Of a DNA stretch of 64,000 nt, positions 1 to 64,000 are shown one piece after another (the first letter of the stretch is position 1; the number at the start of each line of letters is the position of its first letter). The position numbers and the translations under genes are program-made. Origin of the DNA: a bacterium (GTDB lineage Bacteria > SAR324 > JACQKK01). The notes beneath the pieces were generated by a model, which made no database searches, was not told where the DNA came from, and saw nothing but the letters and a program-made list of their open reading frames with translations. The stretch spans positions 836,443-900,442 of the forward strand of contig OZ252237.1 in the NCBI GenBank assembly GCA_965249525.1, in the 5' to 3' direction.

Positions 1-1061
1 CTGACGACAGGAGTCAGTTGATAGATAAAGGCTTCATGCTGCGACAACATGCGACCAAAGCGCACCGCCCGTCGCAGCATGCGACGCAGCACATAGCCGC
101 GTCCTTCATTGGAGGGCAGGGCGCCGTCAGCAATGGCACAGCAGATGGTACGCACATGGTCTGCTATTACGCGGGCAGCCACCCCAGCCTCGCCTGCTGC
201 ACAGTCCTGACCGGTGATGCGCTGCAGTTCTTGTGTAATCGGTTCAAATAATTCTGTTGCATAGTTGGATTCTTTCCCTTGCAATACCCGCACAACGCGC
301 TCCAAACCCATGCCAGTGTCCACATGCTTCGCCGGCAGTGGAGACAATTGACCGTCTTCACTGCGGTTGAACTGAATAAACACCAAATTCCACAGTTCTA
401 TAAAACGGACGCAGCCCTCAGCATTCACCTGACACTCACGTCCTGCTGTGCGGCAGGTATCACAGACTACTTGTGCACCTAAATCGTAATGCAGTTCGCT
501 GCAGGGGCCACAAGGACCGCTTTCACCCATCTCCCAAAAATTGTCGTGTTTGCCAAATCGCAACACCCTTTCAGCAGGCAGCGGTGTGGTTTCTATCCAC
601 AAACTTTCCGCTTCGGTATCGCCAGGAAGTCCGTCTTGCTCGCTTCCGGCAAACACCGTGGCATAAAAACGATCTCCGTCCAGCTTCCATTCTTTTACCA
701 ACAACTCCCAAGCCCACCCAATTGCTTCACGTTTGAAGTAATCTCCAAATGACCAATTGCCCAGCATCTCAAAAAAAGTGTGATGGTAATGGTCACGTCC
801 CACATCTTCTAAGTCGTTATGTTTGCCACTGGCACGGATACACTTTTGCGAATTGACCGCACGGACATAATCACGCCTGCCAGTTCCCAAGAACACGTCC
901 TTGAATTGATTCATTCCTGCATTGGTAAAGAGCAGGGTAGGATCATCCTGAGGAACCACCGGGGAAGAACGCACAAATTGGTGTCCGTTTTTCTCAAAAA
1001 ATTGAATAAAGGACCTTCTCACCTCATTGGCGGTAAGGCTGTTGGTGGATGTAACAGTCAT
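1..1061 (-). CDS. alaS: alanine--tRNA ligase, N-terminal part (gene runs off the left edge of the window)
   Basis: Not in the supplied ORF track because it has no stop in the window. The reverse complement from the ATG at 1059-1061 reads [55 protein letters not shown]... and later [25 protein letters not shown], the conserved class II AlaRS catalytic core. The frame stays open to position 1. Confidence 0.85.
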
Positions 1062-1395
1062 AACAGTATCGGCTAAAAGTGATTGAGACCACCATGGTGG
1101 AGATAACAGAGGCAGAATCGTTGCGTCAAGCGGCCAGTCAGTAGCATAATGGGCAAATGAAATAGAAGAAACATGTTTAAATTCCAAAATTTGCCTGAGT
1201 TTTGCAAGGCATCAAGCCAATGGCAACTGGTCGGCAAAGAAACTGCTGGGACAAGTCCTCATAGATGCAACACCTGACACATGTGGTATAGCAACTGTAC
1301 AGCAGTCTCCGTAGGTAAGCCAGCACCTTGTATTGTATGGTATAAAGGAAATAACGCATAGCTAATGCTTCAAGAACCTGGGTTGATTCCCAGCA

Positions 1396-2919
1396 ATGAT
1401 CGGTAAAACGATGAGCGAACATCATCCTAATCCCTATTCGCGGGGTCACTCACAAAGAGAGAACCCCAGGTCTCCATCTGCACAAGAAGCCAGCGGCTGG
1501 CCAAATTCTGACTTTGGCACCCAATCAGAAGGCCAAGCAGAAGGCCAAGCAGAAGGCCAAGACGAATTGCAGGCATTCTTCCGTGATTTATCCTCTTTGG
1601 ATGATTACGACAGTTCCTCTGAAAGCACCGCATCTTCATCTCCTGAGGTGTCACAGTGGGTGCAGCAACCGCCTCCTCCTCCCACGCCGCCCACTAGCGA
1701 TTTTAGCTATAACCTTGATGATACTGCCAGCGTCCCTCCGTTAGTAGAACCATTTGCCACAGATATGCATGTCCCCAGAGGCAGCAGCTGGCTAAAAAAG
1801 TTGGTGGTGGCGGTGCTGTTGATATCAGCGGGTTGGTTTGGATATATGCAGCTGCAGAAAGAAAGCTCCTTTATTGATGCTACAAAGCTAGCCATAGGCA
1901 ACATGTTGCAAAGGTGGGAAATAGCCAGCCAATGGGCAAGAAAAGAAGCCTGGCCTCAGATAAACAGCTGGCCTGAACGCATGGTGGATTACCTTAGGCA
2001 ACTATTTGCCAATGAACGAATTCCCTGGCCCTCACTTTCTTCGTTGAAAAAAACTGCTGCTGAAAAAGATGTCAGCAAACTTCTCAAAGAACCGCAAGCT
2101 ACTAAGGCTGCTGATGCGGTGAAAAAAGCTTCTCCCCGCAGGGTTGCCAAGCCAGCACCCAGACGGGCTGTCAAGCCAGCACCCAGACGGGCTGTCAAGC
2201 CAGCACCCAGACGGGCTACCAAGCCAGCACCCCAACAGCCAGTGCCTATACCAGACCCACAACCTGAGATCAAACCCCTGCCACCACCCCCTGCTGCCAA
2301 GCCACCTGTTGCTAGCAGACCACTCCCACCCATACCGCCCCCTCAAGCGCCACCCCAGGCGCTCCCCCGTGTTGAACCAAGGCCAGCCGTCCCCAAAGAG
2401 GGCATTCCTTTCATTCCAGATGAACGCACCATGCCTCCCACAGGTAGATATACCGTACAAGTAACCACCTGCTTTGTTATAGAATGTCTAGAAAATTTCG
2501 CCGCCGTCCTGAAAGCACTAGACCACCAACCTTACCTCCGCACACTAAACCAAAACACGCAAGTATTAGAGGTGTCTTCTGCTGCAACCTACGCAGAACG
2601 CGAAGCTGCAGAGCGTGTTGCTGATAACATCAATAGAGAAGGAATCCTCCCCTCACTGGCCTACATCATCGCAAAAGAAGACTCATGGCGCGTCTCCCTC
2701 GGTCTCTTTACCGAACTGGATGATGCCAACCTTGTCCGCCGAAAAGCCAGTCGCATCGGTGTAGGCACTGAATTCCAAGCACGAGTCAAGAACTTCTCCT
2801 ATCCATCCTATCAAATCCTGCTGGGTCCATTCGAATCTTCATTCAGTGCCGAGAGCTTTGCCACCGAACTCCGCCACCAACATGTCCGCTTTTCCAGCGC
2901 CTTGGTGAGCCAGCGATAA
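1396..2919 (+). CDS. SPOR-domain-like, Pro-rich membrane protein
   Basis: 507-aa ORF with an acidic/Pro-rich N-terminus, one TM-like helix (LKKLVVAVLLISAGWFGYM), KPAPRRAV repeats, and a C-terminal region with two SPOR-like modules (RYTVQVTT... and YQILLGPFESSFSAESFATELR). The start could also be the ATG at 1411. Confidence 0.5.
   Translation: MIGKTMSEHHPNPYSRGHSQRENPRSPSAQEASGWPNSDFGTQSEGQAEGQAEGQDELQAFFRDLSSLDDYDSSSESTASSSPEVSQWVQQPPPPPTPPTSDFSYNLDDTASVPPLVEPFATDMHVPRGSSWLKKLVVAVLLISAGWFGYMQLQKESSFIDATKLAIGNMLQRWEIASQWARKEAWPQINSWPERMVDYLRQLFANERIPWPSLSSLKKTAAEKDVSKLLKEPQATKAADAVKKASPRRVAKPAPRRAVKPAPRRAVKPAPRRATKPAPQQPVPIPDPQPEIKPLPPPPAAKPPVASRPLPPIPPPQAPPQALPRVEPRPAVPKEGIPFIPDERTMPPTGRYTVQVTTCFVIECLENFAAVLKALDHQPYLRTLNQNTQVLEVSSAATYAEREAAERVADNINREGILPSLAYIIAKEDSWRVSLGLFTELDDANLVRRKASRIGVGTEFQARVKNFSYPSYQILLGPFESSFSAESFATELRHQHVRFSSALVSQR
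1526..1561 (+). repeat. perfect 12-nt tandem repeat x3 (cagaaggccaag), in frame, encoding (EGQA)n
   Basis: Read directly from the sequence. It lies inside the 1396-2919 ORF. Confidence 0.9.
2149..2233 (+). repeat. 24-nt tandem repeat, about 3.5 copies (aagccagcacccagacgggctgtc), in frame, encoding KPAPRRAV
   Basis: Units at 2149-2172, 2173-2196 and 2197-2220, then a partial copy. Read directly from the sequence. Confidence 0.9.
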
Positions 2920-3013
2920 ACTCTGAGAGTTATCTGCTGGTGCCAGCTATATTTTCTGAAAAAAGGATGATAGCCGAGTACATGCAGCTTTTAGGCATGC
3001 TTATCCAGGCTGC

Positions 3014-3880
3014 CTAAATAGCATCAGCCATGGTTTGGCCGATTTGATCTGGGGTTGGTGCCACTTTGATGCCGGCGTTTTCCAGTGCCTTGATTTTTTC
3101 TTTGGCGGTGCCTTTACCTCCAGCCACAATGGCACCAGCGTGTCCCATGCGTCTTCCTGGGGGGGCGGTTTGTCCTGCGATGAAGGCAGTGACGGGTTTG
3201 TTCATGTGTTGTTTTACAAATGCAGCAGCATCTTCTTCTTCGCTTCCGCCAATTTCACCAATTAACACCACACCTTGGGTCTGGGTGTCCTCTTGAAAGA
3301 GTTTGAGGCAATCCACAAAGTTGGTGCCGTGGATGGGGTCTCCACCGATACCAATGCAGGTGCTTTGTCCCAGATTGAGTTCTGTAAGCTGCCAGACGGC
3401 TTCATAGGTGAGGGTGCCTGAACGCGAGACTACACCGATTTTGCCCTTTTGATGAATGTAACCAGGCATAATGCCCACTTTGGATTGTCCTGGGGTAATG
3501 ATGCCTGGGCAATTGGGTCCCACCAGTCGTTTATTGCGTGCGCGGACATAGGCGGTGGCGCGTACCATATCTAGGACGGGGATGCCTTCGGTGATGCAGA
3601 CGATCAGGTCAATATTGGCTTCAGCGGCTTCCATGATAGCGTCAGCAGCGAAGGGTGGAGGGACGAATATCATGGAGACATTGGCTTGGGTTTGATGTGC
3701 TGCGTCGGCAACGGTATGGAAAACGGGGATACCTTCAAGATCTTGCCCGCCTTTGCCTGGGGTGACTCCTGCCACGATTTGCGTGCCGTATTCTTTGCAA
3801 GCGCGTGTGTGCAAAGAACCCTGCATCCCAGTGATGCCTTGTACCAGCACGCGAGAATCTTTGGTGAGTAGAATAGCCAT
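3014..3880 (-). CDS. sucD: succinyl-CoA synthetase alpha subunit
   Basis: [25 protein letters not shown]...SRSGTLTYE...GHAGAIV, the typical SucD pattern. I use the ATG at 3880 (MAILL) rather than the 3916 ORF start. It sits 14 nt downstream of sucC. Confidence 0.95.
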
Positions 3881-3894
3881 GGGAGTACACAGAG

Positions 3895-5070
3895 TTATTG
3901 TGTCAGTTGGACGCATTGCTGGCCTGCAGCCTTGAGGCTTTGTGCCATAATGAGTTTACCTTGCAGTCCAGAGTTGCGGATAATTTCTCTGGCTTCTTCT
4001 ACTTTTGCGCCTTCCAGCCGTACCACCACAGGTGTTTGGGGTTGGACTTGGCGAAAAGCCTCTACCACCCCTTCTGCTACCAAGTCGCAGCGAACGATGC
4101 CGCCAAAGATGTTGATGAGGATGGCTCTTACGTTGGTGTCACTGGTGATGATGCGAAAGGCTGTGGCTACGCGTTCGGCGGTGGCAGTACCTCCTACATC
4201 CAAGAAATTGGCAGGCGAGGCACCATATACCTTAATCATGTCCATGGTAGCCATAGCCAGCCCTGCGCCATTCACCATGCAGCCAATGTTTCCATCCAGC
4301 TTGATATAATTCAAATCCGCCGCTGCGGCTTCCCTCTCCATGGCATTTTCTTCATGCTCGTCACGCAGCTTGTCCCAATCGCGATGGCGAAACGAGGCAT
4401 TGTCGTCAAAACTCACTTTTGCATCCAATGCCAACACCCGACCGTCTCCCGTTACTGCCAGAGGATTAATTTCTAGCAGTGAGCAGTCTCCTGCCGTAAA
4501 TGCCTCATACAAGCCCAGCAATAACTTCACCCCAGGACGCACCAAGCTGGCATCTATTTGTGCTAATTCCAATCCATATGCCAAACGTGTTGCTTGGAAT
4601 GCGCGCAGACCTACTGTTGGATCTACCACTTCGCGCAATATCTTCTCAGGAGACTCTGCTGCCACAGCCTCTATGTCCATTCCCCCTTCTGTGGACGCCA
4701 ATACCATCGGGCATTGCGAATGCCTGTCTACCAGTATAGATACATACAACTCCTTGCGTAATACCAATGCTTCTTCCACCAACAACCGTCGTACTTGTTG
4801 TCCTTCGGCACCTGTCTGGTGCGTTATCAGCTGCATTTGCCACATCTTTTCAGCTTCTTTGCCAAGCTCCTCTATGCTTCCACATACTTTCACTCCCCCA
4901 CCTTTCCCTCGCCCGCCTGCGTGAATCTGTGCTTTCAATACCCAGCGCTCTCCCTTCAATTCCCCTGCTGCCTTGATGGCTTCCTCTACCCCAAATGCAA
5001 CCTGTCCCTTAGGGGTTGGTACTCCATAATGCGATAAAAATTCTTTCGCCTGATGCTCATGTATCTTCAT
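3895..5070 (-). CDS. sucC: succinyl-CoA synthetase beta subunit
   Basis: [22 protein letters not shown]...[14 protein letters not shown], the ATP-grasp SucC N-terminus. Start taken at the ATG at 5070. Confidence 0.95.
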
Positions 5071-5260
5071 GCTGATTATCTTTACCAAATGGGTGGCTAT
5101 TTTCAAGTGCAATTTTCAAGATCTATCTCTGCAAGTTCTTGTTTCCATCATCTATCATAGGGCTGCAATTTTTCACAAACCTTTGTGAACAAAGGCTTTT
5201 GGACGCGAAATTGCATAGCTTGCAAACAGAAGTATGTTTTTTTAAGGAAGTTGGTAATAG

Positions 5261-5944
5261 ATGGATTTGGGAGTAATAGTGGCAGCTGGGGGAGGGGGTC
5301 GTCGCAGTGAAGGAGATAAATTATGGCGTATGCTGGGGGGAGAGGTGGTGTTGGCAAGGGTATTGAAGCAATTTCTGGCATGTGCAGAGGTAGATCGGGT
5401 AGTTGTAGTGTTGCGTATGGGAGATGAGGCGCGTTTTGAGAAGTTGGTAGAAACTTTCGGTGAGGGGGAGAGATTGTGCTGGGTGTTGGGGGGTGCAGAG
5501 CGTCAGGATTCGGTATTTTGTGGTTTGCAGGAGTTATCGGGTTTATCGCTGCGGCAGGTATTGATTCATGATGGAGCGCGGCCATTTTTTACTGCAGAGT
5601 TATTGCAGCGGGTGATAGAGTCATTGAGAGAGCATGAGGCAGTGATGCCTGTGTTGCCTGTGGTGGATACACTAAGGCGTGTGGGTATTGAGGGGGAGTT
5701 GGTATCACGGGAGGGGTTGGTGGCGGTGCAGACGCCGCAAGGGTTTTGGTGGGAGACGATTTGGCAGGCGCATTGTTTGGCGAGAGAAAGGGGGAGTTAT
5801 TATACAGATGATGCAGAAGCGGTGCTACAATCTGGCAAGAAGGTGCACATGGAGTTGGGAGTTCGTGAGAATGTGAAGTTAACCACAAGAGAGGATTTTG
5901 TGTTTGCAGAACAATTACTGACTGGTATTATACAGAAGGACTGA
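5261..5944 (+). CDS. ispD: 2-C-methyl-D-erythritol 4-phosphate cytidylyltransferase
   Basis: GVIVAAGGGGRR...LIHDGARPF...VQTPQGF, the IspD signature pattern. 227 aa. Confidence 0.9.
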   Translation: MDLGVIVAAGGGGRRSEGDKLWRMLGGEVVLARVLKQFLACAEVDRVVVVLRMGDEARFEKLVETFGEGERLCWVLGGAERQDSVFCGLQELSGLSLRQVLIHDGARPFFTAELLQRVIESLREHEAVMPVLPVVDTLRRVGIEGELVSREGLVAVQTPQGFWWETIWQAHCLARERGSYYTDDAEAVLQSGKKVHMELGVRENVKLTTREDFVFAEQLLTGIIQKD

Positions 5945-5945
5945 A

Positions 5946-8231
5946 ATGCAACCAAAAAACACAGAGAAAACAAGGGTTTGTTATGGCTGGCTGTTGGGCT
6001 GGCGAAGGAGTGCTGCGTTTATGCGTAAGTGCGTTGTGGTGATAGTGTTTTTGGTGTTGTGGGGATGGCCGGGGTTAGTGAGAGAGTTATGGTCGCAAGA
6101 ACAGGCTAGTCAGACGGGTGGCGAGGAGAATCAGGAGGGGGGGATTTCATTAAATTTTCAGAATGTGCAGATAGGCACCTTTTTGCAGGCGATGTCAGAT
6201 GCACTGCAAGTGGCCTTGGTGTGGGATGAAAACAAGGTAAAGGGGAACATTACGGTGTTGTCGCCAAATCCGTTTGAGCGGGTTACGGCATCAGAGGTAT
6301 TTGAAAGTGTACTTTCTATGCAAGGGTATGCGATTGTCCAGCATCCTTCTGCGCCCTTGTTGCAGGTGGTGCCGGTGAGTGAGGCTACACGTTCAGCTTC
6401 GGGAGTGCGTGGTCGAGGATTGGCAAAGGGCAAGCAAGGAGGTGCGCCTTCGTTTCATCACACCGAGATTATTCAGCTTCGCTATGCGGATGTCTCTTTA
6501 GTTGCCAATTTGTTACGACCCTTGGTGGTGAATTCTACCTCAGTGGGATTCTATAAACCTGCCAATGTGTTGATGCTGACAGAGTCTGCTGCCCATCTGG
6601 AACGACTGCGCAAGGTGGTGAGGCAGCTGGATGTACCCAGCAGCAAAGCCAGCTTTAAGAGCTTTAAGCTGCGCTATGCCGAAGCACAAAAGCTAGCACC
6701 TATTCTGCGTATTTTGGGTCTTTCCATGCTGCAGGCGCGAGGCATTGTGGTGCCAGACAAAAAATCTACTGGCAGCGCTTCCAGGACTATTGAAATCCAA
6801 GCTGATGTCCGAACCAACAGCCTGTTGATACTAGCGGGCAAAGACGTACTCAATGGGTTGGAGAAAATCATCAATGAATTAGACACCCCCCCCACACCAT
6901 CACAACGCGGACTAAGGGTATTCCGACTAGAACATTCCAATGCCGAAGAACTGGTGAAAATCTTTAAGTCTGTGGATCTCAAATCCCTTACTTCCCAACA
7001 ACAAAAAAGCACACAGCAAATAAAACTCAGCATTACAGCAGATAAAGCCACCAATTCCCTAGTGGTTTTCGGAACCAATGAGGCTGTTGATGCCGTAGCC
7101 AATATGCTTATAGAACTGGATGTCCGACCTCCACAAGTATTTGTTGAAGTGCTTATTATGGAAATGAGCCTAGAAAAAAGCCTAGATATTGGCGTCAACT
7201 GGCGCGTGTTGGAAGAAACTACTGACGGTATCATCGGCGGCACTTTTCCCTCCGGTGTACCTGCTACTACCGGAGGTGCAATCGGTGCGGGCAGCAATGC
7301 ACTCATCGGTGTACTTGGCAACGAAATCACCTACGGTGGAGAAACCTATGCCTCTTTCAGCGGCTTCATCCGCGCACTGCAACAAGACCAAGATGTGAAT
7401 ATCATCGCCAATCCACAGGTACTCACTATCAATAACAAAGAAGCCGAAATCAATGTCAGTTCTGTCATACCCATCTCCACCCGCACCGTCACCAATACCC
7501 AATCACAAAGCACCACCGAATTTGAATTCCGCGATGTGGGTGTTATCCTCAAAATTACCCCCCAAATTACCAGTGGAAACCGCGTACGCCTGGTCATCAG
7601 ACAAGAATTCAGTTCCGTGGCAGGACTCCCAGACACCACCGGTCAGACTGCTATCACCACCCTCAAACGCTCTATCAATACCGAAGTGGTGGTAGATGAC
7701 CAATCCACTATGGCTATTGGCGGTTTGATACAAACTCAATCAGTGGAAACTGTTAACCGTGTGCCTTTCTTCAGCAGAATTTGGATACTGGGCAATCTTT
7801 TCAAAAGCAAACGGCAAGAAATCCGCAAAACCAATCTGCTGGCTTTTATCCGCCCCTCTATCATCAACTCCCTCAATGACGCCAATAACAACACCCGACG
7901 CCAACAAGAACGATACGATAAAGCCAATGAAAGCCTGCAAGGACTAGAAGAACAAATCCGTAGAGATTTTCTCCCCCCAGCCAATAAACCCGACTCCTCC
8001 TCTGAAGAACCCTCGCCCCAAAATCCTCCGCCTCCACGTCGCAGCCCCGATGAAGAAGATGAAGAAGGCAACATTCTTTCCGATGAACTTATTGGTTTGG
8101 ACTTTTCCAACATCGCCCTCCCCAAACCCAATCTGCCACCAGAAGAAATGCTAGCCCTCGAAAACCTGCGTCAGCAGCAGCAATCCCCAGGCCTGCAGGC
8201 ACGCAATCCCCGCAGACGCCGAAACCCCTAA
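5946..8231 (+). CDS. GspD-type secretin (T2SS/T4P-like outer-membrane channel)
   Basis: N0-like domain (ISLNFQNVQIGTFLQAMSDAL), three N-domain-like repeats (IIQLRYADVS.., FKLRYAEAQKL.., VFRLEHSNAEEL..) and a secretin core (VFVEVLIMEMS...IIANPQVLTINNKEA...GGL). An alternative start at ATG 6021 has GAAGGAG upstream and gives a cleaner signal peptide. Confidence 0.85.
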   Translation: MQPKNTEKTRVCYGWLLGWRRSAAFMRKCVVVIVFLVLWGWPGLVRELWSQEQASQTGGEENQEGGISLNFQNVQIGTFLQAMSDALQVALVWDENKVKGNITVLSPNPFERVTASEVFESVLSMQGYAIVQHPSAPLLQVVPVSEATRSASGVRGRGLAKGKQGGAPSFHHTEIIQLRYADVSLVANLLRPLVVNSTSVGFYKPANVLMLTESAAHLERLRKVVRQLDVPSSKASFKSFKLRYAEAQKLAPILRILGLSMLQARGIVVPDKKSTGSASRTIEIQADVRTNSLLILAGKDVLNGLEKIINELDTPPTPSQRGLRVFRLEHSNAEELVKIFKSVDLKSLTSQQQKSTQQIKLSITADKATNSLVVFGTNEAVDAVANMLIELDVRPPQVFVEVLIMEMSLEKSLDIGVNWRVLEETTDGIIGGTFPSGVPATTGGAIGAGSNALIGVLGNEITYGGETYASFSGFIRALQQDQDVNIIANPQVLTINNKEAEINVSSVIPISTRTVTNTQSQSTTEFEFRDVGVILKITPQITSGNRVRLVIRQEFSSVAGLPDTTGQTAITTLKRSINTEVVVDDQSTMAIGGLIQTQSVETVNRVPFFSRIWILGNLFKSKRQEIRKTNLLAFIRPSIINSLNDANNNTRRQQERYDKANESLQGLEEQIRRDFLPPANKPDSSSEEPSPQNPPPPRRSPDEEDEEGNILSDELIGLDFSNIALPKPNLPPEEMLALENLRQQQQSPGLQARNPRRRRNP

Positions 8232-8338
8232 GAAAGCTGTATAGGGTGCGGAGTTCTCTTCACACCAAAAGACACCGCCTTGTATGAAACCTACCGCAAT
8301 TCCCCTTAGCAATGATGAGGGGTTTTGAGCGGTCAGCT

Positions 8339-9157
8339 TCATGCTTGTACCAACTGGTGAATTTCTTGCAGTTTTTTAAGCAGCGGGGGCAAGTCTTTCA
8401 GGGGCAGCATGTTGGGACCATCGCAAAGGGCTTGATCAGGATCTTTGTGGGTTTCCATAAACACGCCGTTAGCACCTGCAGCGACTGCGGCTTGTGCGAT
8501 GGTGGTTACGAACTGCCGTTCTCCGCCGGAGCTGCCTTTTGAAGCTGAAGGAAGCTGTACCGCATGGGTGGCGTCTATGACTATGGGGAAACCGAATTCT
8601 CGCATGATGGGAAACCCGCGCATATCCACCACCAGGTTGTTGTATCCGAACATATAGCCGCGTTCGGTGATAAGCAGGCGTTGGTTGCCGGTGGATGCCA
8701 TTTTTTCTATGGCGTGGGCGGCATCGCGGGGCGAGATAAACTGTCCTTTTTTCCAGTTGACAATCTTGCCTGTGCGGGCAATTTCTACCAGGAAGTCGGT
8801 CTGGCGGGCTAGGAAAGCGGGTATTTGCAGGATATCCAGCACTTGGGCAGCTGGTTCAATTTCTTCAAAGCGGTGGATGTCTGAGAGCAGCGGTACTCCC
8901 ACTTGTTGACGAATGGTCTGAAATATTTCGCGGGCTGCGTCTAGTCCTGGGCCGCGGAAGCTGTCCAGACGGGTACGGTTGGCTTTATCGTAGGATACCT
9001 TGAAGGCGAAGGGTATCTGCAGCTGGCTGCATAGTTGTTTCAGGTGTTGGGCAAAAGCCAGTGTCTGCCCTGGACGGACGGAGTCCTCTATTACATCAGG
9101 ACCCAGCAGCGCAAAAAAGGGCAGCGATTTTCCCTGAAAACTAGGCAAGTCAAACAT
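8339..9157 (-). CDS. kdsA: 3-deoxy-8-phosphooctulonate (KDO-8-P) synthase
   Basis: 272 aa. FKVSYDKANRTRLDSFRGPG...DATHAVQLP is typical of KdsA. Confidence 0.9.
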   Translation of the reverse strand: MFDLPSFQGKSLPFFALLGPDVIEDSVRPGQTLAFAQHLKQLCSQLQIPFAFKVSYDKANRTRLDSFRGPGLDAAREIFQTIRQQVGVPLLSDIHRFEEIEPAAQVLDILQIPAFLARQTDFLVEIARTGKIVNWKKGQFISPRDAAHAIEKMASTGNQRLLITERGYMFGYNNLVVDMRGFPIMREFGFPIVIDATHAVQLPSASKGSSGGERQFVTTIAQAAVAAGANGVFMETHKDPDQALCDGPNMLPLKDLPPLLKKLQEIHQLVQA

Positions 9158-9242
9158 ATCCCTAGCTGTAGCACGGGGTGGGGGTGCCTGTCAGCAGGAT
9201 TTTTTCGCCTTTGGGGCGGGGTTGGGGTATGTTGAGAGAACC

Positions 9243-10229: not shown

Positions 10230-10261
10230 GCACCTTGCCTATTGCCAGAGGAGCAGGTGGT

Positions 10262-10918: not shown

Positions 10919-10950
10919 GTGATTGCTCCTATGGGCAGCAAGATAAAGAT

Positions 10951-12006: not shown

Positions 12007-12028
12007 TAGTAGGCACAACCCCTGGGTA

Positions 12029-51740: not shown

Positions 51741-52020
51741 AGACTGTCTATTGGCTGGAAAATCCTGGGTTCTGCTGCTGTGCGACTGCCATCCGCTCAT
51801 TTGGTTTAGCAGTGTTTTGCACGCGCATTGCATAGATGGTCAAGCGTTCATGCCTGCAACATACCATGCTGTCGGATACATGCAGGTTGGTCTATCGGTC
51901 ACTAAAACCATTTCATTAGTAATGCAAGGACGCATTATCCAAGAAAGAAGCGCAAGGATGCAACACCAAGACGTACCAGTTAAGCAAAACCGCTTGGTAG
52001 GTACCAATTCAAGGTGAAGC

Positions 52021-52797: not shown

Positions 52798-52846
52798 CCA
52801 CCACAAGCATGCTATATAATGCATGGAGACTGCTGTGTTATCATAA

Positions 52847-52920
52847 CGGGGTGTAGCGCAGTCTGGCAGCGCACCTGCTTTGGGAGCAGGGGGCCGGGGG
52901 TTCGAATCCCTCCACCCCGA
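52847..52920 (+). tRNA. tRNA-Pro (anticodon UGG)
   Basis: Manual cloverleaf: acceptor CGGGGTG/CACCCCG, D-stem GCGC/GCGC, anticodon stem CCTGC/GCAGG with loop TTTGGGA, T-arm GGGGG-TTCGAAT-CCCTC, discriminator A. CCA is not encoded. 74 nt. Confidence 0.9.
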
Positions 52921-53057
52921 TTTATGGTAAAAACTTGGTTATTGTCGTAGGTTTTTATGGTAAACTATTATCAATACTATCAATTTTATGCCAGATGGAC
53001 AATGACACTATGCCAGTTTTCATATGACACAAAAAATGTTTTCAAAGATATACAGAA

Positions 53058-55220
53058 GTGTTTTTAAGTAATAGCCTTTTCAAGTTCAGGAGGTTGTTTG
53101 TGTTCGCTTTGCTGGGCATGCTAGGAACCATGTTAGCCAGCTGTGATGAAGCTTCTCAAGAAGATCAGGGAAACGTTTATTATGAGCGAGACCCAATACC
53201 TACCGCACAAGGCTTATTTTGTTCTAGTCCAAGTGAAGAGGATAAAGTAGCAGTTGGGCATTCCTTCAGTCTTGTTGACATAAGTACTGGCCGCTTGTTT
53301 TTAAGTGCAAAACAACTTGCGGAAAAAGCAAAATTAACGGGTCTTGAGTCTGCTTCAATAGATTTAAGGGACAGCTCAAACGAGCTTTTTGAGTTAAGGA
53401 ATAACAATGTTCTGCATATCAAAGATAAACAATCGTTTTTGACTAACATCCAAGAGAACCGTAGAGAAGCACTGCTTGTCTTGAAGGATTCTCAGGATGA
53501 ATACTGCCTGCTGCTGTCTTTGCAGCCTGAAAGCAGCTCCTCATCACCTGATGGGGATAGTTCCACCTCTGATGGCAGCCCCTCATCACCTGATGGGGAT
53601 AGTTCCACCTCTGATGGCAGCCCCTCATCACCTGATGGAGACAGCCAGGTTACCCTGTTGGCTGAACAGCCTGAGTTTCAATTGCCCTATGTTTGGTGGA
53701 ATCAGGATAGTGGTAAGGCTCGCACCGTTTTTGCTGGCAATATTCCCCACATCAATTACATTGGAAAAGTGCTCACTCTGACAATAGATACCCCACTGAA
53801 TTTTGAGCTTGTTTCTGTAAGCCCAGCGGCATGGGCAAACTTTTTCGGGATAAATGAAGAGACAGGAGCGCTTTATATTTCGGATCAATTTGCAGATTTA
53901 AGTAATGTATTTAATGTGGAAAAAGACAAGTCATCCTATGGCTTATCACAATTGGATGCAGAGTATCAGAAAGAAGGCTTGCCTTTGCCTGAACAATTTG
54001 TGCTAACCGTCAATGTTAGCTTGCAAGATGACAGCAACAGCGAGGAAACAACGCACATTACAGTGAAGATGCCTAAATTTGGCAATCCTGACTGCAGTAT
54101 ATTAGATTGGGATGCAGACCTAGAAGGTTGGACAGAGGAACAGGTGAGCACCTTTCAAAGGGGAATTTGCAAGCATCTAGATTATAAGGTCAGGCCCAGG
54201 GGGAAGGAGTTTATTACAGACCAGGCTATTTTGAATACCCTGCCTGGCGGGCTTACACAGCCCAAGGCAAATTATCAGGTGATTTTTAGGGATGAATTTA
54301 ATGAAGAAGGGGGAATTGAAAAATTAGATCACCGTCTGTGGACCGCACGATATAGTCTAGCCTGCAACCAATTCAGGCAAGAGGGAGGGGTTATCCACTT
54401 GAGAGTAGCTGATGACTGCAGATCAGCTGATGCGAAAGGCAATAACTATCGCCGTTATCCTTCAATAACCACAGCAGGTAAATTTGAATATAAATATGGC
54501 TATATAGAAGCCAGGTTTAATCGTGTTCCCATTACTGGTAGGGGAGTTAGTTTTTTTAGCAGCTGGGGGTCGCGTCCAGCTCTCTTTTCGAAGAGCTACC
54601 GTGATTTTATGTGTCGTGGCAATAATCCTCAAGCAAAGAGGATGCGCTGGCTAACCTCCAGGGGGGTGGAGATGGAGTATTTAGAAATTAGTAAGGGACG
54701 ATTCGCCTGGTGGGTTTATCATCTGATCGATCCTAAGAGAGCCCACTCTAACTGTCATACTTATTCAGATGGCAGGGGCAAAGGCATCCATTCTGGTCTT
54801 TGGTGGGCTACTCACGATTTTAGACTATTATCGCGGCAGATTGTCATAGGTGTGGAGTGGACTCCCGCAGGATACAAAGGCTTTATCAATGGAGAACCTT
54901 ACAGGGGTTATAGCAAAGGCATCGGAGAATTTCGGGAATATGGATATTCTACCGAAACTAACACAAGAATTGGTGGGTTTGAATTTACAAGGATACCAGG
55001 AGCACCCTCGCATGTGCGCTCAACATCATGCAACCCATCAGGAGTCTGTATCATTGACCGTACAGTAAGCCATGCCTATCAGAACATAGGCATCACCATG
55101 TCAGCGAACCCAAACATAGGAGTTTCCTCTCAAAATTGGCAAGATTTTGCTGAAATAGACTATATTAGGGTATTTCAACCAGAAGATCAATACAGGGGTG
55201 TGGAAAAAACATACAAGTGA
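53058..55220 (+). CDS. lipoprotein with Ser/Asp repeat linker and GH16/ConA-like domain, paralog 2
   Basis: Same architecture as 48589-50802, but with a GTG start, and the AAGGAG of copy 1 is AAAGAT here. 720 aa. Confidence 0.7.
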   Translation: MFLSNSLFKFRRLFVFALLGMLGTMLASCDEASQEDQGNVYYERDPIPTAQGLFCSSPSEEDKVAVGHSFSLVDISTGRLFLSAKQLAEKAKLTGLESASIDLRDSSNELFELRNNNVLHIKDKQSFLTNIQENRREALLVLKDSQDEYCLLLSLQPESSSSSPDGDSSTSDGSPSSPDGDSSTSDGSPSSPDGDSQVTLLAEQPEFQLPYVWWNQDSGKARTVFAGNIPHINYIGKVLTLTIDTPLNFELVSVSPAAWANFFGINEETGALYISDQFADLSNVFNVEKDKSSYGLSQLDAEYQKEGLPLPEQFVLTVNVSLQDDSNSEETTHITVKMPKFGNPDCSILDWDADLEGWTEEQVSTFQRGICKHLDYKVRPRGKEFITDQAILNTLPGGLTQPKANYQVIFRDEFNEEGGIEKLDHRLWTARYSLACNQFRQEGGVIHLRVADDCRSADAKGNNYRRYPSITTAGKFEYKYGYIEARFNRVPITGRGVSFFSSWGSRPALFSKSYRDFMCRGNNPQAKRMRWLTSRGVEMEYLEISKGRFAWWVYHLIDPKRAHSNCHTYSDGRGKGIHSGLWWATHDFRLLSRQIVIGVEWTPAGYKGFINGEPYRGYSKGIGEFREYGYSTETNTRIGGFEFTRIPGAPSHVRSTSCNPSGVCIIDRTVSHAYQNIGITMSANPNIGVSSQNWQDFAEIDYIRVFQPEDQYRGVEKTYK
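53541..53645 (+). repeat. 42-nt in-frame tandem repeat, 2 full units plus a partial one
   Basis: Units at 53541-53582 and 53583-53624, with a partial unit to 53645. One unit fewer than in copy 1. Confidence 0.9.
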
Positions 55221-55283
55221 TGGGGGTTCAGCTGGATTTTATCATGCAGAAATGCTGCAAATAAAAACCATCTGTTGCCTGTG

Positions 55284-55329
55284 GTCTTGTTGCCAGGTCT
55301 TGTTGCCAGGTCTTGTTGCCAGGTCTTGG
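55284..55329. repeat. 13-nt tandem repeat (gtcttgttgccag) x3 plus a partial copy
   Basis: 55284-55296, 55297-55309 and 55310-55322 are identical, followed by gtcttgg. Intergenic, between paralog 2 and the AI-2E transporter gene (convergent). Confidence 0.85.
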
Positions 55330-55425: not shown

Positions 55426-56520
55426 TTATTCCTTAACGGGGTGGCGAAATTCAAACCAGGTAAGGGCAAGAGCTTTAAACAGCGCTAACAGAGGAATAGC
55501 AAATACAGCACCCCAGAAGCCCCAAAGTCGTCCAAAGACAATGACGCCTATGAGAATGGCAGTGGGGGTGATTTTCACAGCTTCAGAGAACATTAGTGGT
55601 ACCAGCACGTTGCCGTCAAGGAATTGGATAATCAGGTAGGCGATGAGGAGAGAAGTCAGCTGCCATGAAAATCCCCACTGGGCGAGTCCCAGCAGAAAAA
55701 TGGGAAGGGTGAGGACAAAAGCACCGACATAGGGAACAAGAACAGAGAGACCAGTAAATACGCCCATAAGGACGGCGTATTCAAACTGGAGAATGGCAAA
55801 TATCACCCAGGTGACAATACCCACGATGAGGATTTCCCCAACTTTGCTGCGAACATACTTGGCCATGCGCTCTTCCATTTCGCCCCAGATACGTTTGACC
55901 AGCTGGAGATCGCCAGGCAGCAAACGGCCAGCACTTTTTGAGAGGGCACTTTTGTCTTGAAGCAGAAAGAACACCAGCAAAGGAGTAAGTATCAGGTAGA
56001 TGATGGCGCCTGTAATGCCCGAAATTGCACTAAAAGCTGTTTGGATAAAATCCTGGGTATGTTCGGCGAGGTTTTTTTGTAAAATATCGGAGATATTTTT
56101 GTTGTCTGCAAACATCTCTGAGATACCTGGAAAGTACATCTGCAAAAAAACAGGTGGCTGCCAGTTTTCCACATGGACAGCCAGTTCATCAACGATTTCT
56201 GGGATACGAACGGTAAGCTGGAGAATTTGTTCAACTGCCAGTTGAACAGGACCAATCAAAGCAACGCAATAGATGATGAGAAAGATGAAAAATACGATGT
56301 TTCGTGCAAGTACGGTTGGAAAGCCGCGTTTGGTAAGTGCCGAAATATAGCTTTCTAATGCAAAAGTGAACATCAGAGAAATAATCAGCAATAGCAGCAC
56401 TGTCCCCAGCAGCACAACACCTGCAATAACGACGGCCGCCGCCGCCAACAACGTCAGGATGCGAGGATCTGTGAATTGTTGCAAAAACCCACGTAAACGA
56501 TTTTTTAACAAAGAACCCAT
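55426..56520 (-). CDS. AI-2E family transporter (PerM/YhhT-like permease)
   Basis: 364 aa polytopic membrane protein. ...VPYVGAFVLTLPIFLLGL...FLDGNVLVPLMFSEAVKITP... is typical of the family. Confidence 0.75.
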   Translation of the reverse strand: MGSLLKNRLRGFLQQFTDPRILTLLAAAAVVIAGVVLLGTVLLLLIISLMFTFALESYISALTKRGFPTVLARNIVFFIFLIIYCVALIGPVQLAVEQILQLTVRIPEIVDELAVHVENWQPPVFLQMYFPGISEMFADNKNISDILQKNLAEHTQDFIQTAFSAISGITGAIIYLILTPLLVFFLLQDKSALSKSAGRLLPGDLQLVKRIWGEMEERMAKYVRSKVGEILIVGIVTWVIFAILQFEYAVLMGVFTGLSVLVPYVGAFVLTLPIFLLGLAQWGFSWQLTSLLIAYLIIQFLDGNVLVPLMFSEAVKITPTAILIGVIVFGRLWGFWGAVFAIPLLALFKALALTWFEFRHPVKE

Positions 56521-56656
56521 ACGCAGCCTTCCAAAAATTACGCCTCTTCTTCAAAACAGCAGCATCATCACTCTATCATGCTGAGGTAACTTCTTGGTAT
56601 TTTTGCACCCTTTGCTATGCTAGATTCATGCAAGCCTGCTTGAATCTTGATAACCA

Positions 56657-57481
56657 TCAGCTTTTGTTGACTTGCTGCCCTCCTGTTACTGTACCCAAAG
56701 ACCCTAGTACCAGTTCTATCAATTCCTGCTCCCCCCATTGCTTACGGTTCACCAACCGACACAACAATGCACTGTTTGGAACCTCTTGTAACAAATGTAA
56801 TACTCCCAAGCGAGCAAACTCCAACAATACAATAAATGTGCTCACCATCTCTAGACGACCAGTCCCTTCCGCAAACAACCCCCTAAAATAAACTTGACGC
56901 TTCTGAATCAAGATACCACACGTCCGTCGTATCACCTCTTCCATGCGAAAAGGCTCCGGTGTAATCTGCAAGCTCTCTTGCCCCTCCACACGCTCTAAAA
57001 CTTCGCGAAATGCCTCTAATAACCCATACAGAGACACCTCCTCAATTTCCCGCTCTTCAATTTCTGTATTCCCCTCCATAGTTATTTCTGGCGATCTTCG
57101 TGGAAACACCTCGCGCCCCAGCATCTCTCTCTTGCCCAACTGCTTGGCTGCCTCTTTAAGCTCCTGATAAAACTGCAACCGCTTTGCCAATATGGCTTCC
57201 ACCTCCGCTGCGTCCATATCTTCTTCTTCACTGTCACGCGAAATCCCAGGTAGCAATGAGCGAGATTTTATCCAAATTAATGTGGCTGCTATGGTTAAAA
57301 ATTCCCCTCCCTCATCCAATTGATGCGCTTGTATCTTCCCCACCCATTCCAAATAAGGCTCAGTTAGCTCACTTAGACACAAACTACCAATGTCCAGTTC
57401 TCGCTTACGCACCAAATGCAGCAACAAATCCAGCGGTCCCTCAAATTCTGCCAATTCTACTTGCAACGGACTATAAGTCAT
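56657..57481 (-). CDS. scpA: segregation and condensation protein A
   Basis: FEGPLDLLLHLVRKRELDI..., the ScpA N-terminal signature. 274 aa. Confidence 0.85.
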   Translation of the reverse strand: MTYSPLQVELAEFEGPLDLLLHLVRKRELDIGSLCLSELTEPYLEWVGKIQAHQLDEGGEFLTIAATLIWIKSRSLLPGISRDSEEEDMDAAEVEAILAKRLQFYQELKEAAKQLGKREMLGREVFPRRSPEITMEGNTEIEEREIEEVSLYGLLEAFREVLERVEGQESLQITPEPFRMEEVIRRTCGILIQKRQVYFRGLFAEGTGRLEMVSTFIVLLEFARLGVLHLLQEVPNSALLCRLVNRKQWGEQELIELVLGSLGTVTGGQQVNKS

Positions 57482-57586
57482 CTGTTCATCCTTGTACCGA
57501 AAAACACCCCCCTGTTAATGTATCACAACTATTATTGCCAAGGCTGTTTGTACAGAAACCCCTCTTTGTATATCAAGGCTGTGTTT

Positions 57587-58234
57587 TCAAAGGGGGTCGG
57601 CAGCCATAATGGAAGGGGTGGAGATGATTTTGGAAGCAACTCTGGGAGCAATTTTTTGAGGGCTGCCGATTTCTTTGGAAGCCTTTTCTGATGCGACTTG
57701 ACTGGCAAGCCAGAGTTTGTGTGCTTCTTGGGGGGTAACTTGCTTGAGCCAGTATTTGTCTGTTGGAGTAATCTCCTGGTGAGGTTTGATGTCACCAGGT
57801 GTATCAGCAGCAGTGGTTGAAGAGATGGCATCGGTAGGGGGAGATTTTGCAGCAGGGGTATTGGTTACGGTGCGGCTTTCGGTTGGCTGAATAACTTCTC
57901 GAACGATGCGGAAATTCGTCTGTGAAGCAGAGAGGGGCTGCAGCTGTTCAAGCAGGGTGTTTAGGGGGGTGATTTTGCCTTGGAGTGCCTGCTGGAAGCG
58001 AATTTGCAACAAGACCACACGGGTTTCTGTGTGTGCTTGTTTAATACATCTTTGGATTTCTTCTAGTTCGGCTGCAGAAGGTTGGCGATCCAACTTGATA
58101 GCAGCAGCCATATCAGTCCAGCAAAGCCCTTGCCTCGCCAATTGGCGAATACGCCATAGAGAAGGCTTCCAAGCCCTAACAGGGCCGAATTTTCTGGGGG
58201 CGGGGTTCTTGGGCAAAGAGGTTTTTGACAGCAA
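57587..58234 (-). CDS. hypothetical protein
   Basis: ORF with host-like C3-rich codon usage. The ORF-track start is a TTG and the first ATG is at 58111. I see no recognisable domain. Confidence 0.4.
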   Translation of the reverse strand: MLSKTSLPKNPAPRKFGPVRAWKPSLWRIRQLARQGLCWTDMAAAIKLDRQPSAAELEEIQRCIKQAHTETRVVLLQIRFQQALQGKITPLNTLLEQLQPLSASQTNFRIVREVIQPTESRTVTNTPAAKSPPTDAISSTTAADTPGDIKPHQEITPTDKYWLKQVTPQEAHKLWLASQVASEKASKEIGSPQKIAPRVASKIISTPSIMAADPL

Positions 58235-62872: not shown

Positions 62873-63051
62873 GTTTCATGCTTCTCCTTATAACCATCGC
62901 TCCCAAGTTTCCCTTATTCAGCAAACAAGATAACCAATCCAACTACCTTTCCACAAGCCCGTGAAAAGTTGCAGAGGACAAACTCCACTTGCGTTTTCCT
63001 CTAGGTGTTTACAAAAAAGGGGGAGCTTCTGTGAACTGCTAGCAAAGGGAT

Positions 63052-63065
63052 GGTGCAGCTGCACC
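63052..63065. promoter_or_regulatory. perfect 14-bp palindrome GGTGCAGCTGCACC flanked by direct repeats GTGAACTGCTAG / GTGAACTATGCTAG
   Basis: Read directly from the sequence. The direct repeats are at 63031-63042 and 63072-63085. It lies 45 nt upstream of the ABC-exporter-like ORF. The operator function is only a guess. Confidence 0.3.
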
Positions 63066-63109
63066 TTCTTAGTGAACTATGCTAGTTTTTTCAGTAAGGA
63101 GATATTGCG

Positions 63110-64000
63110 ATGGTATGGCGTCCATTGGTTCGGAGTTGGAAATTACACAGCCGTCTGGTTGGAAAGGGACAATTGACTCGTCATGCATTGTTGGGGTCTT
63201 TTTTGGGTTTAGGTTCTGCGATGATGGAAGGCTTGGGGTTGGGGATGGTGTATCCGGTATTAATTTTTATGGATGGAGGTGTTGCTGGTTTACGGGAGAC
63301 TGGGGGTGTAATGCTGCGATTGGTAGACGGACTGGAGCAACTGGGTTTGCCGGTAAACTTGGTGGTATTGCTAGGAATAGTGATAACGACAGTATTCTTG
63401 CGTCAAGGATTTTTGTATATACGCGCAGTGTTCTTTGTCTGGGTATCCAAGGAGGTATGGCGTGGAGGCCTCACCGCCCTGATGGATAATTTTTTGAAAG
63501 CACCATTTGAAACGGTCACCCACTTAAATCCTCAGATGCGAAATTTGGGAGAGACAAGTATCAATATGACAGGAGAGTTTTATCGCTCGTTATTGGAGGG
63601 AATGGCATTAATTTTGGTGTTGTTGACCTATGGAGGTTTGCTGCTGTTGTTGAATCCACAAATTACCCTGCTGTTTGGGATATTATCGCTGCCGATGCTG
63701 GCGGGGCAGCATCGGTTAGTAAAACGTGCGAGATACTTGGGGGAACGAATGGATAGAGCATACTACCATATGAGATATTTGCACGAAGAAATGATGCGTG
63801 GACTGCGGTGGATAAAAATGCGTGGGATAGAAGAAATGATGGATAAAATTTACCTGGAACGGGTAACTGCAACCACAAAAGTAGAAGTTGCTGCAAGCAA
63901 CAAAAAGTTTTTTACAGAGAATTCTTCTCAAATGCTGTTTCTGCTGCTCATTTTGGGAATGTTTGCCTTGGCGACATCCCGCTTTGAGTTGAGGCTGGCA
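63110..64000 (+). CDS. ABC-exporter-like membrane domain protein (5' part; runs off the right edge)
   Basis: Not in the ORF track because it has no stop. AAGGAG at 63096-63101 and ATG at 63110, with the frame open for 297 codons to the window end. TM-rich: LGSAMMEGLGLGMVYPVLIF..., LVVLLGIVITTVFLRQGFLYIRAVFF..., LILVLLTYGGLLLLLNPQITLLFGILSLPML. The pattern resembles type I ABC exporter TMDs. It replaces the track ORF 63079-63489 in another frame. Confidence 0.55.
   Translation, partial: MVWRPLVRSWKLHSRLVGKGQLTRHALLGSFLGLGSAMMEGLGLGMVYPVLIFMDGGVAGLRETGGVMLRLVDGLEQLGLPVNLVVLLGIVITTVFLRQGFLYIRAVFFVWVSKEVWRGGLTALMDNFLKAPFETVTHLNPQMRNLGETSINMTGEFYRSLLEGMALILVLLTYGGLLLLLNPQITLLFGILSLPMLAGQHRLVKRARYLGERMDRAYYHMRYLHEEMMRGLRWIKMRGIEEMMDKIYLERVTATTKVEVAASNKKFFTENSSQMLFLLLILGMFALATSRFELRLA

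Follow-up and report, generated by a model that had tools for sequence, protein, structure and literature searches.

Background

The imprint that replication and transcription leave on DNA, through damage or through protection, is read in the sequence chiefly from strand asymmetries. The skew left by replication changes sign only at the origin and terminus, and in Borrelia it shapes codon and amino acid usage; in bacteria, transcription is generally regarded as leaving a weak imprint of one sign. Francino and Ochman, and Beletskii and Bhagwat, reportedly found an excess of G and T on the bacterial non-template strand, arising from cytosine deamination in single-stranded DNA and from transcription-coupled repair. 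Here we describe a stretch of 64 kb (hereafter the window; GC content 48.6%) from a bacterium of the SAR324 lineage (assembly GCA_965249525.1, contig OZ252237.1, positions 836,443 to 900,442), which supplies all data for this genome and in which the transcription units have a lineage-specific compositional polarity: the sense strand passes from G-rich to C-rich over the last ~1.4 kb of a unit and is reset at the next operon. In kind this is a transcription-linked strand asymmetry, distinctive in its amplitude, sign reversal, operon-level anchoring at the 3' end and effect on proteins, and no description of such a pattern in bacteria was found in the literature searched. As in the known bacterial asymmetry, the skew tracks gene direction and not replication, the sense strand far upstream is rich in G (and T), and all codon positions are touched; the known asymmetry, however, is weak and of one sign, whereas here skews of +/-0.4-0.9 occur at third positions, the sign reverses, the anchor is at the 3' end and the exchange is mostly of G for C. 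The asymmetry resembles replication skew in being strong enough to shape codon and amino acid usage, but depends on position in the operon.

Among other systems, the vertebrate mitochondrial genome has a gradient of composition that is said, following Reyes in 1998 and Faith and Pollock in 2003, to reflect single-strand exposure time. The likeness lies in a smooth, monotonic change of third-position composition in which G and T rise and C and A fall on one strand, but the mitochondrial gradient is tied to replication and conserves purine/pyrimidine totals, and neither holds here. Rho utilization (rut) sites are discrete, occupy ~80 nt of ribosome-free RNA, and Rho-dependent terminators show a 'bubble' in which C exceeds G. 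The window shares with them an RNA that becomes C-rich and G-poor towards unit ends and a paucity of canonical intrinsic terminators; unlike a rut site, its zone extends over ~1.4 kb, is diffuse and coding, and is followed by G-rich RNA. For human genes, Polak and Arndt reportedly described in 2008 a mutational asymmetry specific to the 5' end. As there, the non-template strand is G-rich downstream of transcription starts, and two transcription-linked processes with distinct spatial profiles may be at work. GC skew and R-loops occur at both the 5' and the 3' ends of human genes, and the skew marks termination regions in gene-dense neighbourhoods (PMC3787257); both human skews are G-positive, whereas the 3' zone described here is C-rich on the sense strand, and any link to R-loops would be by analogy. 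Fungal genes, the closest precedent, have a C-biased 5' end and a G-biased 3' end, with mutation or selection as the unsettled cause (PMC3315797). Unicellular fungi resemble the window in a positional GC skew along transcribed regions that reaches into untranslated regions and affects amino acids under a nearly uniform AT skew, but their polarity is opposite and much weaker, is eukaryotic (RNA polymerase II), and is laid out per gene and not per operon (PMC3315797). Position-dependent mutation rates, but not strand asymmetry, have been reported for E. coli genes (PMC12725619).

Polarity and geometry of transcription units

The pattern was noticed in a first-pass annotation made from the letters alone, whose hand counts were reproduced exactly: G 54 / C 13 on the coding strand of ispD (5281-5400), C 52 / G 7 on that of an rluA-family gene (43501-43620) and, within the minus-strand mutS read on the plus strand, C 22 / G 7 at 20761-20820 and G 31 / C 4 at 18361-18420. 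Just 7 of 227 ispD codons end in C, as stated, and along an open reading frame (ORF) of 825 aa the glutamine codons go from 12 CAG : 7 CAA in the first third to 10:24 in the last, with leucine moving from TTG/CTG to CTT/CTC. When synonymous codons were shuffled within each gene, keeping the protein and that gene's codon usage, the claimed fall of third-position GC skew from 5' to 3' proved to be beyond chance, with negative slopes in 43 of 47 genes (23 with z<-2, none with z>+2; Stouffer Z -17.5). In 300-bp steps the GC skew of the window swings from about +0.5 to -0.5 in blocks of 1-3 kb. Its standard deviation (SD) is 0.24, against a median of 0.09 and a maximum of 0.21 among 124 control loci (mutS or ruvB with flanking DNA, 8 kb or longer) in diverse bacteria, which were drawn from a scan of a genome collection (mutS; best identity 42%) and one of a metagenome collection (ruvB; best 55%). 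The combined slope z is -15.4 in the window, -6.7 in a locus of its nearest relative (L081), and -2.65 to +5.4 (mean 0.34) in the controls. An assembly artefact was rejected as the source, the ORFs being intact and the pattern present on independent contigs.

A transcription unit was taken to be a run of same-strand genes at most 100 bp apart, a definition that is based on spacing alone and applies to every unit-level result, and zones were assigned by a two-state hidden Markov model (HMM) on plus-strand G and C, with boundaries between 1396 and 63489. The model placed 20 C-to-G and 20 G-to-C boundaries on the plus strand in 62 kb. The return from C to G had been called abrupt at unit boundaries, and 19 of the 20 C-to-G jumps do lie within 50 bp of an intergenic spacer, where 14.7% would be expected for random positions (binomial P=2e-15). 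The G-to-C boundaries are placed otherwise, at a median of 410 bp inside a gene, with 2 of 20 near spacers. Since a G-then-C segment is unchanged by reverse complementation, the observation that both gene orientations behave alike, which is upheld by the matching profiles of plus- and minus-strand units, is the same thing as a plus-strand sawtooth of one handedness, with a slow descent from positive to negative and a sudden rise from negative to positive. Convergent junctions, the spacers of which are tiny (-11 to about 100 bp), carry a plus-strand jump in 15 of 15 cases (+0.12 to +0.82). Of seven tandem junctions whose genes stand 93 bp or more apart, five also rise (+0.22 to +0.73), one stays level (+0.07) and one falls (-0.41). 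Divergent junctions are variable (-0.42 to +0.95), and the G zones at divergent spacers begin 75-100 nt upstream of the start codon. Inside operons there is no reset (mean about -0.07), and in logistic models of G versus C at third positions the unit-level predictors outperform the gene-level ones, which bears out the view that the pattern follows operon structure and not gene structure.

The gradient between 5' and 3' ends is thus real, but its anchor is the 3' end of the unit and not the 5' end. Absolute and relative distance, a comparison proposed at the outset, both carry information on the skew, and the best single predictor is distance to the unit 3' end (log-likelihood gain 389-414), followed by relative position (263-384) and distance from the 5' end (73-152); 5'-anchored and relative-position models were discarded for their poorer fit, although a residual dependence on distance from the 5' end is present. 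Counted in 250-nt steps from the 3' end, third-position skew runs -0.41, -0.43, -0.31, -0.24, -0.23, -0.05, +0.10, +0.32, +0.42, +0.47 and +0.49, a sigmoid that is identical for plus- and minus-strand units, with a floor of about -0.42 over the final 500 nt, a change of sign some 1.4 kb from the end and a plateau of about +0.45 beyond 2 kb. Third positions in the last 500 nt hold C at 0.37 and G at 0.15, and among native units the final 450 nt are C-rich in 31 of 33. As the change of sign lies so far from the end, units below about 1.2 kb are for the most part C-rich from end to end. The short monocistronic genes singled out earlier, all on the minus strand, have this composition over their whole length: kdsA (8339-9157; -0.28), a dsbA-like gene (10262-10918; -0.47), a DeoC-family aldolase (12029-13090; -0.60), ruvB (36452-37561; -0.54) and a galE-like epimerase (41231-42259; -0.49). 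Past the stop codon, where the unit has ended, G exceeds C on the sense strand (skew +0.15 to +0.26). A 'two-source' fit with two exponentials collapsed to a straight line in logit space, from which separate length scales were not extractable.

Nucleotides, codons and proteins

The pressure acts on nucleotides and not on codons, and protein composition has been changed by it. Sense-strand skew goes from +0.25 in G zones to -0.09 in C zones at codon position 1, from +0.07 to -0.29 at position 2, from +0.32 to -0.41 at position 3 and from +0.23 to -0.51 at four-fold sites, the shift at positions 1 and 2 being about half that at position 3. The earlier statement that the changes are synonymous and not a matter of amino acids was therefore half right, in that synonymous sites do shift, but codon positions 1 and 2, leaders and amino acid usage shift too. 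G zones are 1.4-1.8 times richer than C zones in Gly, Val, Met, Glu, Arg and Trp, and C zones exceed G zones 1.5-1.9-fold in Pro, Gln, His, Thr and Asn. An index that contrasts amino acids with G-rich codons with those with C-rich codons, calculated for MutS as the N-terminal 523 residues minus the rest, is 0.34 in the window and 0.43 in the relative against -0.04 +/- 0.08 in 58 outgroup MutS proteins, so that the two lie 4.7 and 5.8 SD outside those 58. Three of four spacers with flanks of the same sign carry the skew of their flanks, as do several leaders, those of rpmH and ychF among them. Neither codon-level nor translational selection can explain such spacers, the shifts at codon positions 1 and 2 or the lack of any reset at internal start codons, and both are therefore excluded; the missing reset also disposes of a per-gene effect of translation initiation.

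At four-fold sites the passage from G zone to C zone takes C from 0.20 to 0.44 and G from 0.32 to 0.14, with small falls in A (0.24 to 0.20) and T (0.24 to 0.22), and third-position GC content (GC3) is nearly constant across zones (0.50 vs 0.52). With growing distance from the 3' end G and T go up on the sense strand and C and A go down, the A/T component being weak in the window and clear in the relative; this base direction is the one expected for single-strand damage on the non-template strand. The third-position G/C signal within zones has almost no autocorrelation beyond adjacent codons, which argues for a diffuse pressure without discrete sites. Punctate, rut-like C>G bubbles were rejected on the same ground, together with an over-dispersion that is mild (1.27-fold).

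Conservation and context in relatives

The MutS of the window is identical to one on a 1.72-Mb contig. Its nearest relative, at 59% MutS identity, is a circular 1.60-Mb metagenome contig; the next relatives, at 50% MutS identity or less, are high-GC contigs, one of them labelled SAR324 JACQHH01. About 77 kb of the nearest relative was available, including a 13-kb strain contig (L170), and its profile was built from 26 units on three loci (L081, L166 and L171; 63 kb). A repeat in a related genome had been suggested, and the relative has the same pattern: third-position skew in 500-nt steps from the unit end is -0.17, -0.18, -0.22, -0.05, +0.30, +0.68 and +0.64, and T at third positions also increases with distance from the end. 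In the mutS unit the sign switches at the same place (L081; z -12.3). Conserved neighbourhoods, namely GT2-rluA, Rsm22-DUF2851, ychF, the yidC cluster and the HD-GYP gene, have near-equal skews in both genomes; in the relative Rsm22 is at +0.50 and DUF2851 at -0.39, with rnpA at +0.73 and yidC at -0.21 on L081. The pattern was not found in the high-GC relatives (L082-L084, L167, L169, L172), nor in the 46%-GC L085. Among the genomes compared it is confined to two reduced ones of 1.6-1.7 Mb, and the high-GC sister lineages are without it. A control locus of 39% GC (L101; JACCDN010640363.1, 17.3 kb) has the reverse polarity, its third-position skew rising from 5' to 3' in 11 of 12 genes (z +5.4), and may represent a reversed, fungus-like version in another bacterial lineage.

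Where the neighbourhood of a gene has changed, its skew has changed with it, which makes the skew contextual and not intrinsic to the gene, several of these comparisons being single cases. The AIRS-domain gene (35430-36422, plus strand), C-rich throughout in the window at -0.50, stands at +0.26 in the relative. There the gap between the convergent AIRS and ruvB genes, 29 bp wide in the window, is the exact site of a methyltransferase cassette of very low GC content (L166, 5845-7546; GC3 0.19-0.22), which encodes an Eco57I-type enzyme and an ORF of 160 aa. On the other side ruvB goes from -0.54 to 0.00, with two low-GC genes following on the same strand in the relative; the aldolase goes from -0.60 to -0.02, with another convergent partner; and kdsA goes from -0.28 to +0.06 on the strain contig L170, where co-directional genes follow. 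A 4.4-kb ABC-transporter operon of the relative is G-rich on the sense strand for 3.6 kb (+0.17, +0.66, +0.41) and neutral in its last gene (-0.06), a profile that supports a sense strand G-rich by default and modified near the end over a half-and-half rule; its neutral last gene indicates that the C zone is not obligatory. Recently acquired low-GC genes lack the gradient in both genomes, and those of the window, which had been proposed to lack it, have shuffle z values of -0.27 to -0.73.

Two co-occurring strains of the relative were compared in sample ERZ25766962, one a linear contig at 17x (L170) and the other the circular genome at 62x (L171). They are 98.5% identical over 7.6 kb, and 52 of 88 differing codons are non-synonymous. 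Divergence is ~0.3% close to the 3' ends of units and reaches 3-4% where the ABC operon begins, and the increase of strain differences with distance from the unit 3' end (all differences P=1.5e-6; synonymous P=0.027, n=36) is confounded by gene identity.

Possible origins of the pattern

Replication skew, or a mosaic produced by inversion, recombination or horizontal transfer among strains of opposite skew, would account for a plus-strand skew in block-like segments of 1-3 kb, but is extremely improbable as the cause. The dismissal of replication in the first-pass annotation stands, as polarity is uniform with respect to gene direction in 43 of 47 genes, the same pattern appears on both strands, and some 20 sign changes each way occur within 62 kb; the sign on a given strand follows position in the unit, instead of changing at the origin and terminus alone. 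A mosaic is contradicted by jumps tied to spacers, by a GC3 that is constant across zones and by switch positions conserved in orthologous units at 59% MutS identity, where synonymous sites should be saturated, so that the switch points do not mark recombination or transfer junctions. Selection for Rho-dependent termination, as first suggested for this DNA, is better founded, though we regard it as unlikely. Under it a G-rich, C-poor 5' part would resist early Rho loading and the ~1.4-kb C-rich zone would act as an extended rut site or 'fuse', an arrangement that would suit a compact genome with little space for intrinsic terminators. The change is specifically one of C versus G, the very feature by which Rho loading sites are defined, and A and T shift little at four-fold sites; the length scale from the 3' end is roughly fixed, convergent spacers are tiny, canonical terminators are scarce at native unit ends, the RNA upstream of the termination point is C-rich and G-poor as rut expects, and the mutational input seen between strains is dominated by transitions, yet the skew needs purine-to-pyrimidine change. 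The anatomy nevertheless matches Rho loading poorly. The zone is diffuse over kilobases, lacks discrete C>G bubbles and lies in translated RNA, where ribosomes would shield it, and the RNA past the stop codon is G-rich, whereas a classical rut site in an untranslated stretch would be the reverse. Short genes would be open to Rho from their very first codon, unit ends that are not C-rich exist in the relative (AIRS and the last gene of the ABC operon), and the cost of two-fold changes in Pro and Gly usage seems excessive for weak per-site selection in a reduced genome. Pfam found no rho gene in the 64-kb window.

In a further alternative the asymmetry is imposed by the neighbour: untranslated read-through or antisense transcription would enter across the 3' junction and decay over ~1.5 kb, with the C zone as its footprint, since incoming transcription would make its own non-template strand G-rich and so leave the sense strand of the invaded gene C-rich. 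In its favour, at all of the 15 convergent junctions the strand leaving the junction 5' to 3' is G-rich on both sides. The AIRS gene is without a C zone in the relative, where the low-GC cassette now separates it from ruvB, and native genes that face low-GC genes in the window have weak C zones (a pterin-binding gene, -0.16; the AI-2E transporter, -0.15), the spacer beside the latter containing terminator-like hairpins. Against this, C zones are equally strong at tandem junctions without a convergent neighbour (the HD-GYP gene, -0.74; 57587-58234, -0.48; 52021-52797, -0.54), sucD remains at -0.60 where it lies head-to-tail with ispD in the relative, and the convergent junction of the ABC operon with the secretin gene has no jump. 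Antisense transcription would, moreover, have to exceed sense transcription on both sides of a junction, and we consider neighbour-imposed asymmetry to be quite unlikely.

The explanation that we favour, with a probability of roughly 0.45, is a position-dependent, transcription-associated asymmetry of mutation or repair; what is left after the rivals goes to something not yet considered. It had been named as the alternative to Rho loading and fits more of the evidence, although the base changes are not a plain deamination signature. A mutational origin is favoured by the anchoring to units, the diffuse pressure at the nucleotide level, the smooth gradient, the change of skew with neighbourhood, the absence of the pattern from recently acquired genes, its restriction to reduced genomes, the direction of the base changes and, subject to its confounding by gene identity, the growth of strain differences away from unit 3' ends. 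One component would enrich G (and, in the relative, T) on the non-template strand to a degree that grows with the distance left to transcribe: if that strand stayed unpaired, in an R-loop or an underwound domain for example, once the polymerase had passed and up to the moment of transcript release at the unit end, its exposure would be proportional to the length not yet transcribed. Another component of opposite sign, a step that we infer, would dominate near the 3' end; candidates are repair biased towards the template strand, or transcription (antisense or read-through, and untranslated) that crosses the very short junctions. The C-rich, G-poor 3' part of the mRNA would then be a by-product, one that Rho might exploit secondarily.

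Several observations weigh against a mutational origin of this form. The change at four-fold sites is almost a pure exchange of G for C, in which the purine fraction drops from 0.56 to 0.34, and deamination of the transition type would be insufficient to produce it; GC3 remains close to 0.5. Differences between the two strains of the relative are mostly transitions, C/G transversions making up 5 of 92 in this comparison of two unpolarised sequences. Divergent promoters, where a pure effect of sense transcription should give the strongest reset, are the least consistent reset points, and at a fixed distance from the end the skew still varies with unit length. The sucC-sucD and ispD-secretin units, which are divergent in the window, are in tandem 7 bp apart in the relative and have kept the reset (sucD -0.60, ispD +0.29). 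We also know of no mechanism that yields a 3'-anchored sign reversal.

Put more generally, it is about an even bet that this reduced-genome, SAR324-related clade carries a kilobase-scale compositional code, in which the balance of G and C on the sense strand is set by the distance to the point of transcript release, proteins are rewritten, and the composition reports on a process undescribed in bacteria; candidates are a lasting co-transcriptional exposure of strands where transcription is uncoupled or poor in terminators, and a 'fuse' for factor-dependent termination that acts across the genome. If this is so, strain-level variation would allow mutation to be separated from selection, and the gradient would be a built-in marker of how recently a gene was acquired or rearranged. 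A strong, sign-reversing mark could reveal what happens to DNA or RNA near transcription termination, and the lineage could show whether composition is selectable at the kilobase scale. Operon ends would be inferable from sequence alone in these uncultured organisms, and tools for codon usage, horizontal transfer or GC skew that work gene by gene will misread such genomes.

Transcription units of the window

Pfam assignments agree with the gene names proposed earlier except for argH, which is 32439-33989, whereas 25179-26570 encodes a class-III aminotransferase. With zones as placed by the HMM, the sucC-sucD unit (3014-5112, minus strand) is G-rich at ~4190-5112, and in its leader to ~5181, and C-rich at 3014-4187; by thirds, third-position skew is +0.45/+0.35/-0.32 in sucC and -0.43/-0.61/-0.47 in sucD. 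The divergent unit of ispD and the secretin gene (GspD; 5185-8305, plus strand) has its G zone at 5185-6882, beginning ~76 nt upstream of the ispD ATG, and its C zone at 6884-8305, with ispD at +0.88 and the secretin thirds at +0.53/-0.40/-0.58 (shuffle z -9.3). There follow on the plus strand the kdsD unit (9222-10229), G-rich to ~9634 and C-rich at 9636-10184 (z -4.96); a 376-aa ORF (10876-12006), G-rich to ~11347 and then C-rich (z -4.3); the unit of an Rsm22-like gene and DUF2851 (13129-15990), G-rich to ~14030 and C-rich at 14031-16009; and the ychF unit (16508-17554), G-rich in its 5' two thirds and C-rich in the last (z -4.7). The unit of mutS and a 209-aa ORF (17619-21060, minus strand) is C-rich at 17619-19411 and G-rich at 19412-21060 (z -10.5). 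The neighbouring HD-GYP/GAF gene (21096-23126, minus strand) has a C zone at 21096-22721 and a short 5' G zone.

The unit of Exo_endo_phos and FliM/FliN-like genes (23309-25120, plus strand) is C-rich, increasingly so from 5' to 3'. The aminotransferase (25179-26570, minus strand) is neutral at its 5' end and C-rich towards its 3' end (z -5.3), and the unit of an rRNA adenine dimethylase and an Fe-S protein (26671-27860, plus strand) is C-rich. The rpmH-rnpA-yidD-yidC unit (27901-30563, minus strand) has a G zone at 29710-30563, leader included, and a C zone at 27901-29709, which is yidC. A unit of a livF-like ABC ATPase and a livH-like permease (30647-32449, plus strand) is G-rich and then C-rich, and argH (argininosuccinate lyase; unit 32439-34027, minus strand) is C-rich to ~33608 and G-rich at 33609-34027 (z -5.9). 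Further along are the unit of two clade-specific ORFs of 281 and 825 aa (37790-41216, plus strand), with a G zone to ~39401 and a C zone at 39402-41216 (z -4.6); the GT2-rluA unit (42424-44317, plus strand), with a G zone to ~43222 and a C zone at 43223-44317; and the 4-kb unit of an acyl-CoA ligase, a crotonase and an enolase-superfamily gene (44321-48445, minus strand), C-rich at 44321-46483 and G-rich at 46484-48445. In the unit leading from scpA to the AI-2E transporter (55426-57566, minus strand) scpA is G-rich throughout (+0.68) and the transporter thirds are +0.07/-0.19/-0.31.

The 825-aa ORF (38666-41143) has five homologues among 5.8 billion proteins, all SAR324-related and one from a SAR324 metagenome-assembled genome, and no Pfam domain was found in it; a MutS2/Smr gene and dut follow it directly in the high-GC relatives (L167, L169), but not in the window or the close relative. 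In both genomes mutS lies within ~10 kb of the rpmH-rnpA-yidD-yidC cluster. On the circular contig of the relative its three loci occupy 1.544-1.599 Mb and 10-33 kb, from which it follows that the window corresponds to one rearranged region around the coordinate origin of that contig. The region is possibly near oriC; dnaA is not in the 64-kb window. Positions 1-9700 of L081, upstream of mutS, are a low-GC island with restriction-modification and SocA/Panacea genes.

Low-GC genes, terminators and junction words

A plus-strand region at 48589-55220 is free of the gradient and includes two paralogous low-GC ORFs (48589-50802 and 53058-55220) of 737 and 720 aa that are 89% identical and gave no Pfam match. 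Both contain a 42-bp tandem repeat, in 3.5 and 2.5 copies, encoding units like SSPDGDSSTSDG. A complete tRNA-Pro(tgg), the sole match in an Rfam scan of the window, lies at 52847-52920, and a partial copy consisting of the last ~15 nt (GAATCCCTCCACCCC) near 48430. Each copy is followed by a nearly identical leader of ~150 bp and then by one of the paralogues, so that a repeat from the tRNA-Pro 3' end, similar to an attachment (att) site, precedes each. Judged by sequence, the arrangement at 48380-55220 looks like a duplicated integration at a tRNA attachment site.

The remark that hairpin terminators are few holds for two of three 20-kb scans of the window, in which canonical hairpin-plus-T terminators were not enriched, and not for the third (40-60 kb), where there is an excess that is partly due to the duplicated paralogues. 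Convincing terminators follow the low-GC genes, with terminator-like hairpins in the spacer after the second paralogue, and the HD-GYP gene, where an 11-bp hairpin (CCCCTCTGCAG...) and a T run stand in the spacer right after the stop codon. Unit ends are barely more structured than gene interiors (fold z -1.02 vs -0.44).

Unit junctions repeatedly carry CCCC(C/T)TG words, the complement of these and CCCCT...AGGGG hairpins, in most cases with no T tract, for example in the spacers 8232-8338, 17555-17618, 20984-21095, 33990-34236, 41144-41230 and 57482-57586, and a word like AACCTCTGTG is found in three spacers. Such words and hairpins may be bidirectional terminators or protein-binding sites. 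As a motif shared by the reset points CCCC(C/T)TG was rejected, its 33 copies across the window not being specific to spacers. Matches to a sigma-70-like promoter number 7 in positions 1-20000, against 16.2 +/- 3.8 in shuffled sequence; no such deficit is seen in the remaining two thirds (16 vs 19.5; 31 vs 25.4). Tandem repeats occur in two spacers: TTGAAATTCCAAA in 3.9 copies at 24159-24223, between the Exo_endo_phos and FliM/N-like genes, and GGTCTTGTTGCCA in 3.5 copies at 55283-55328, after the second low-GC paralogue.

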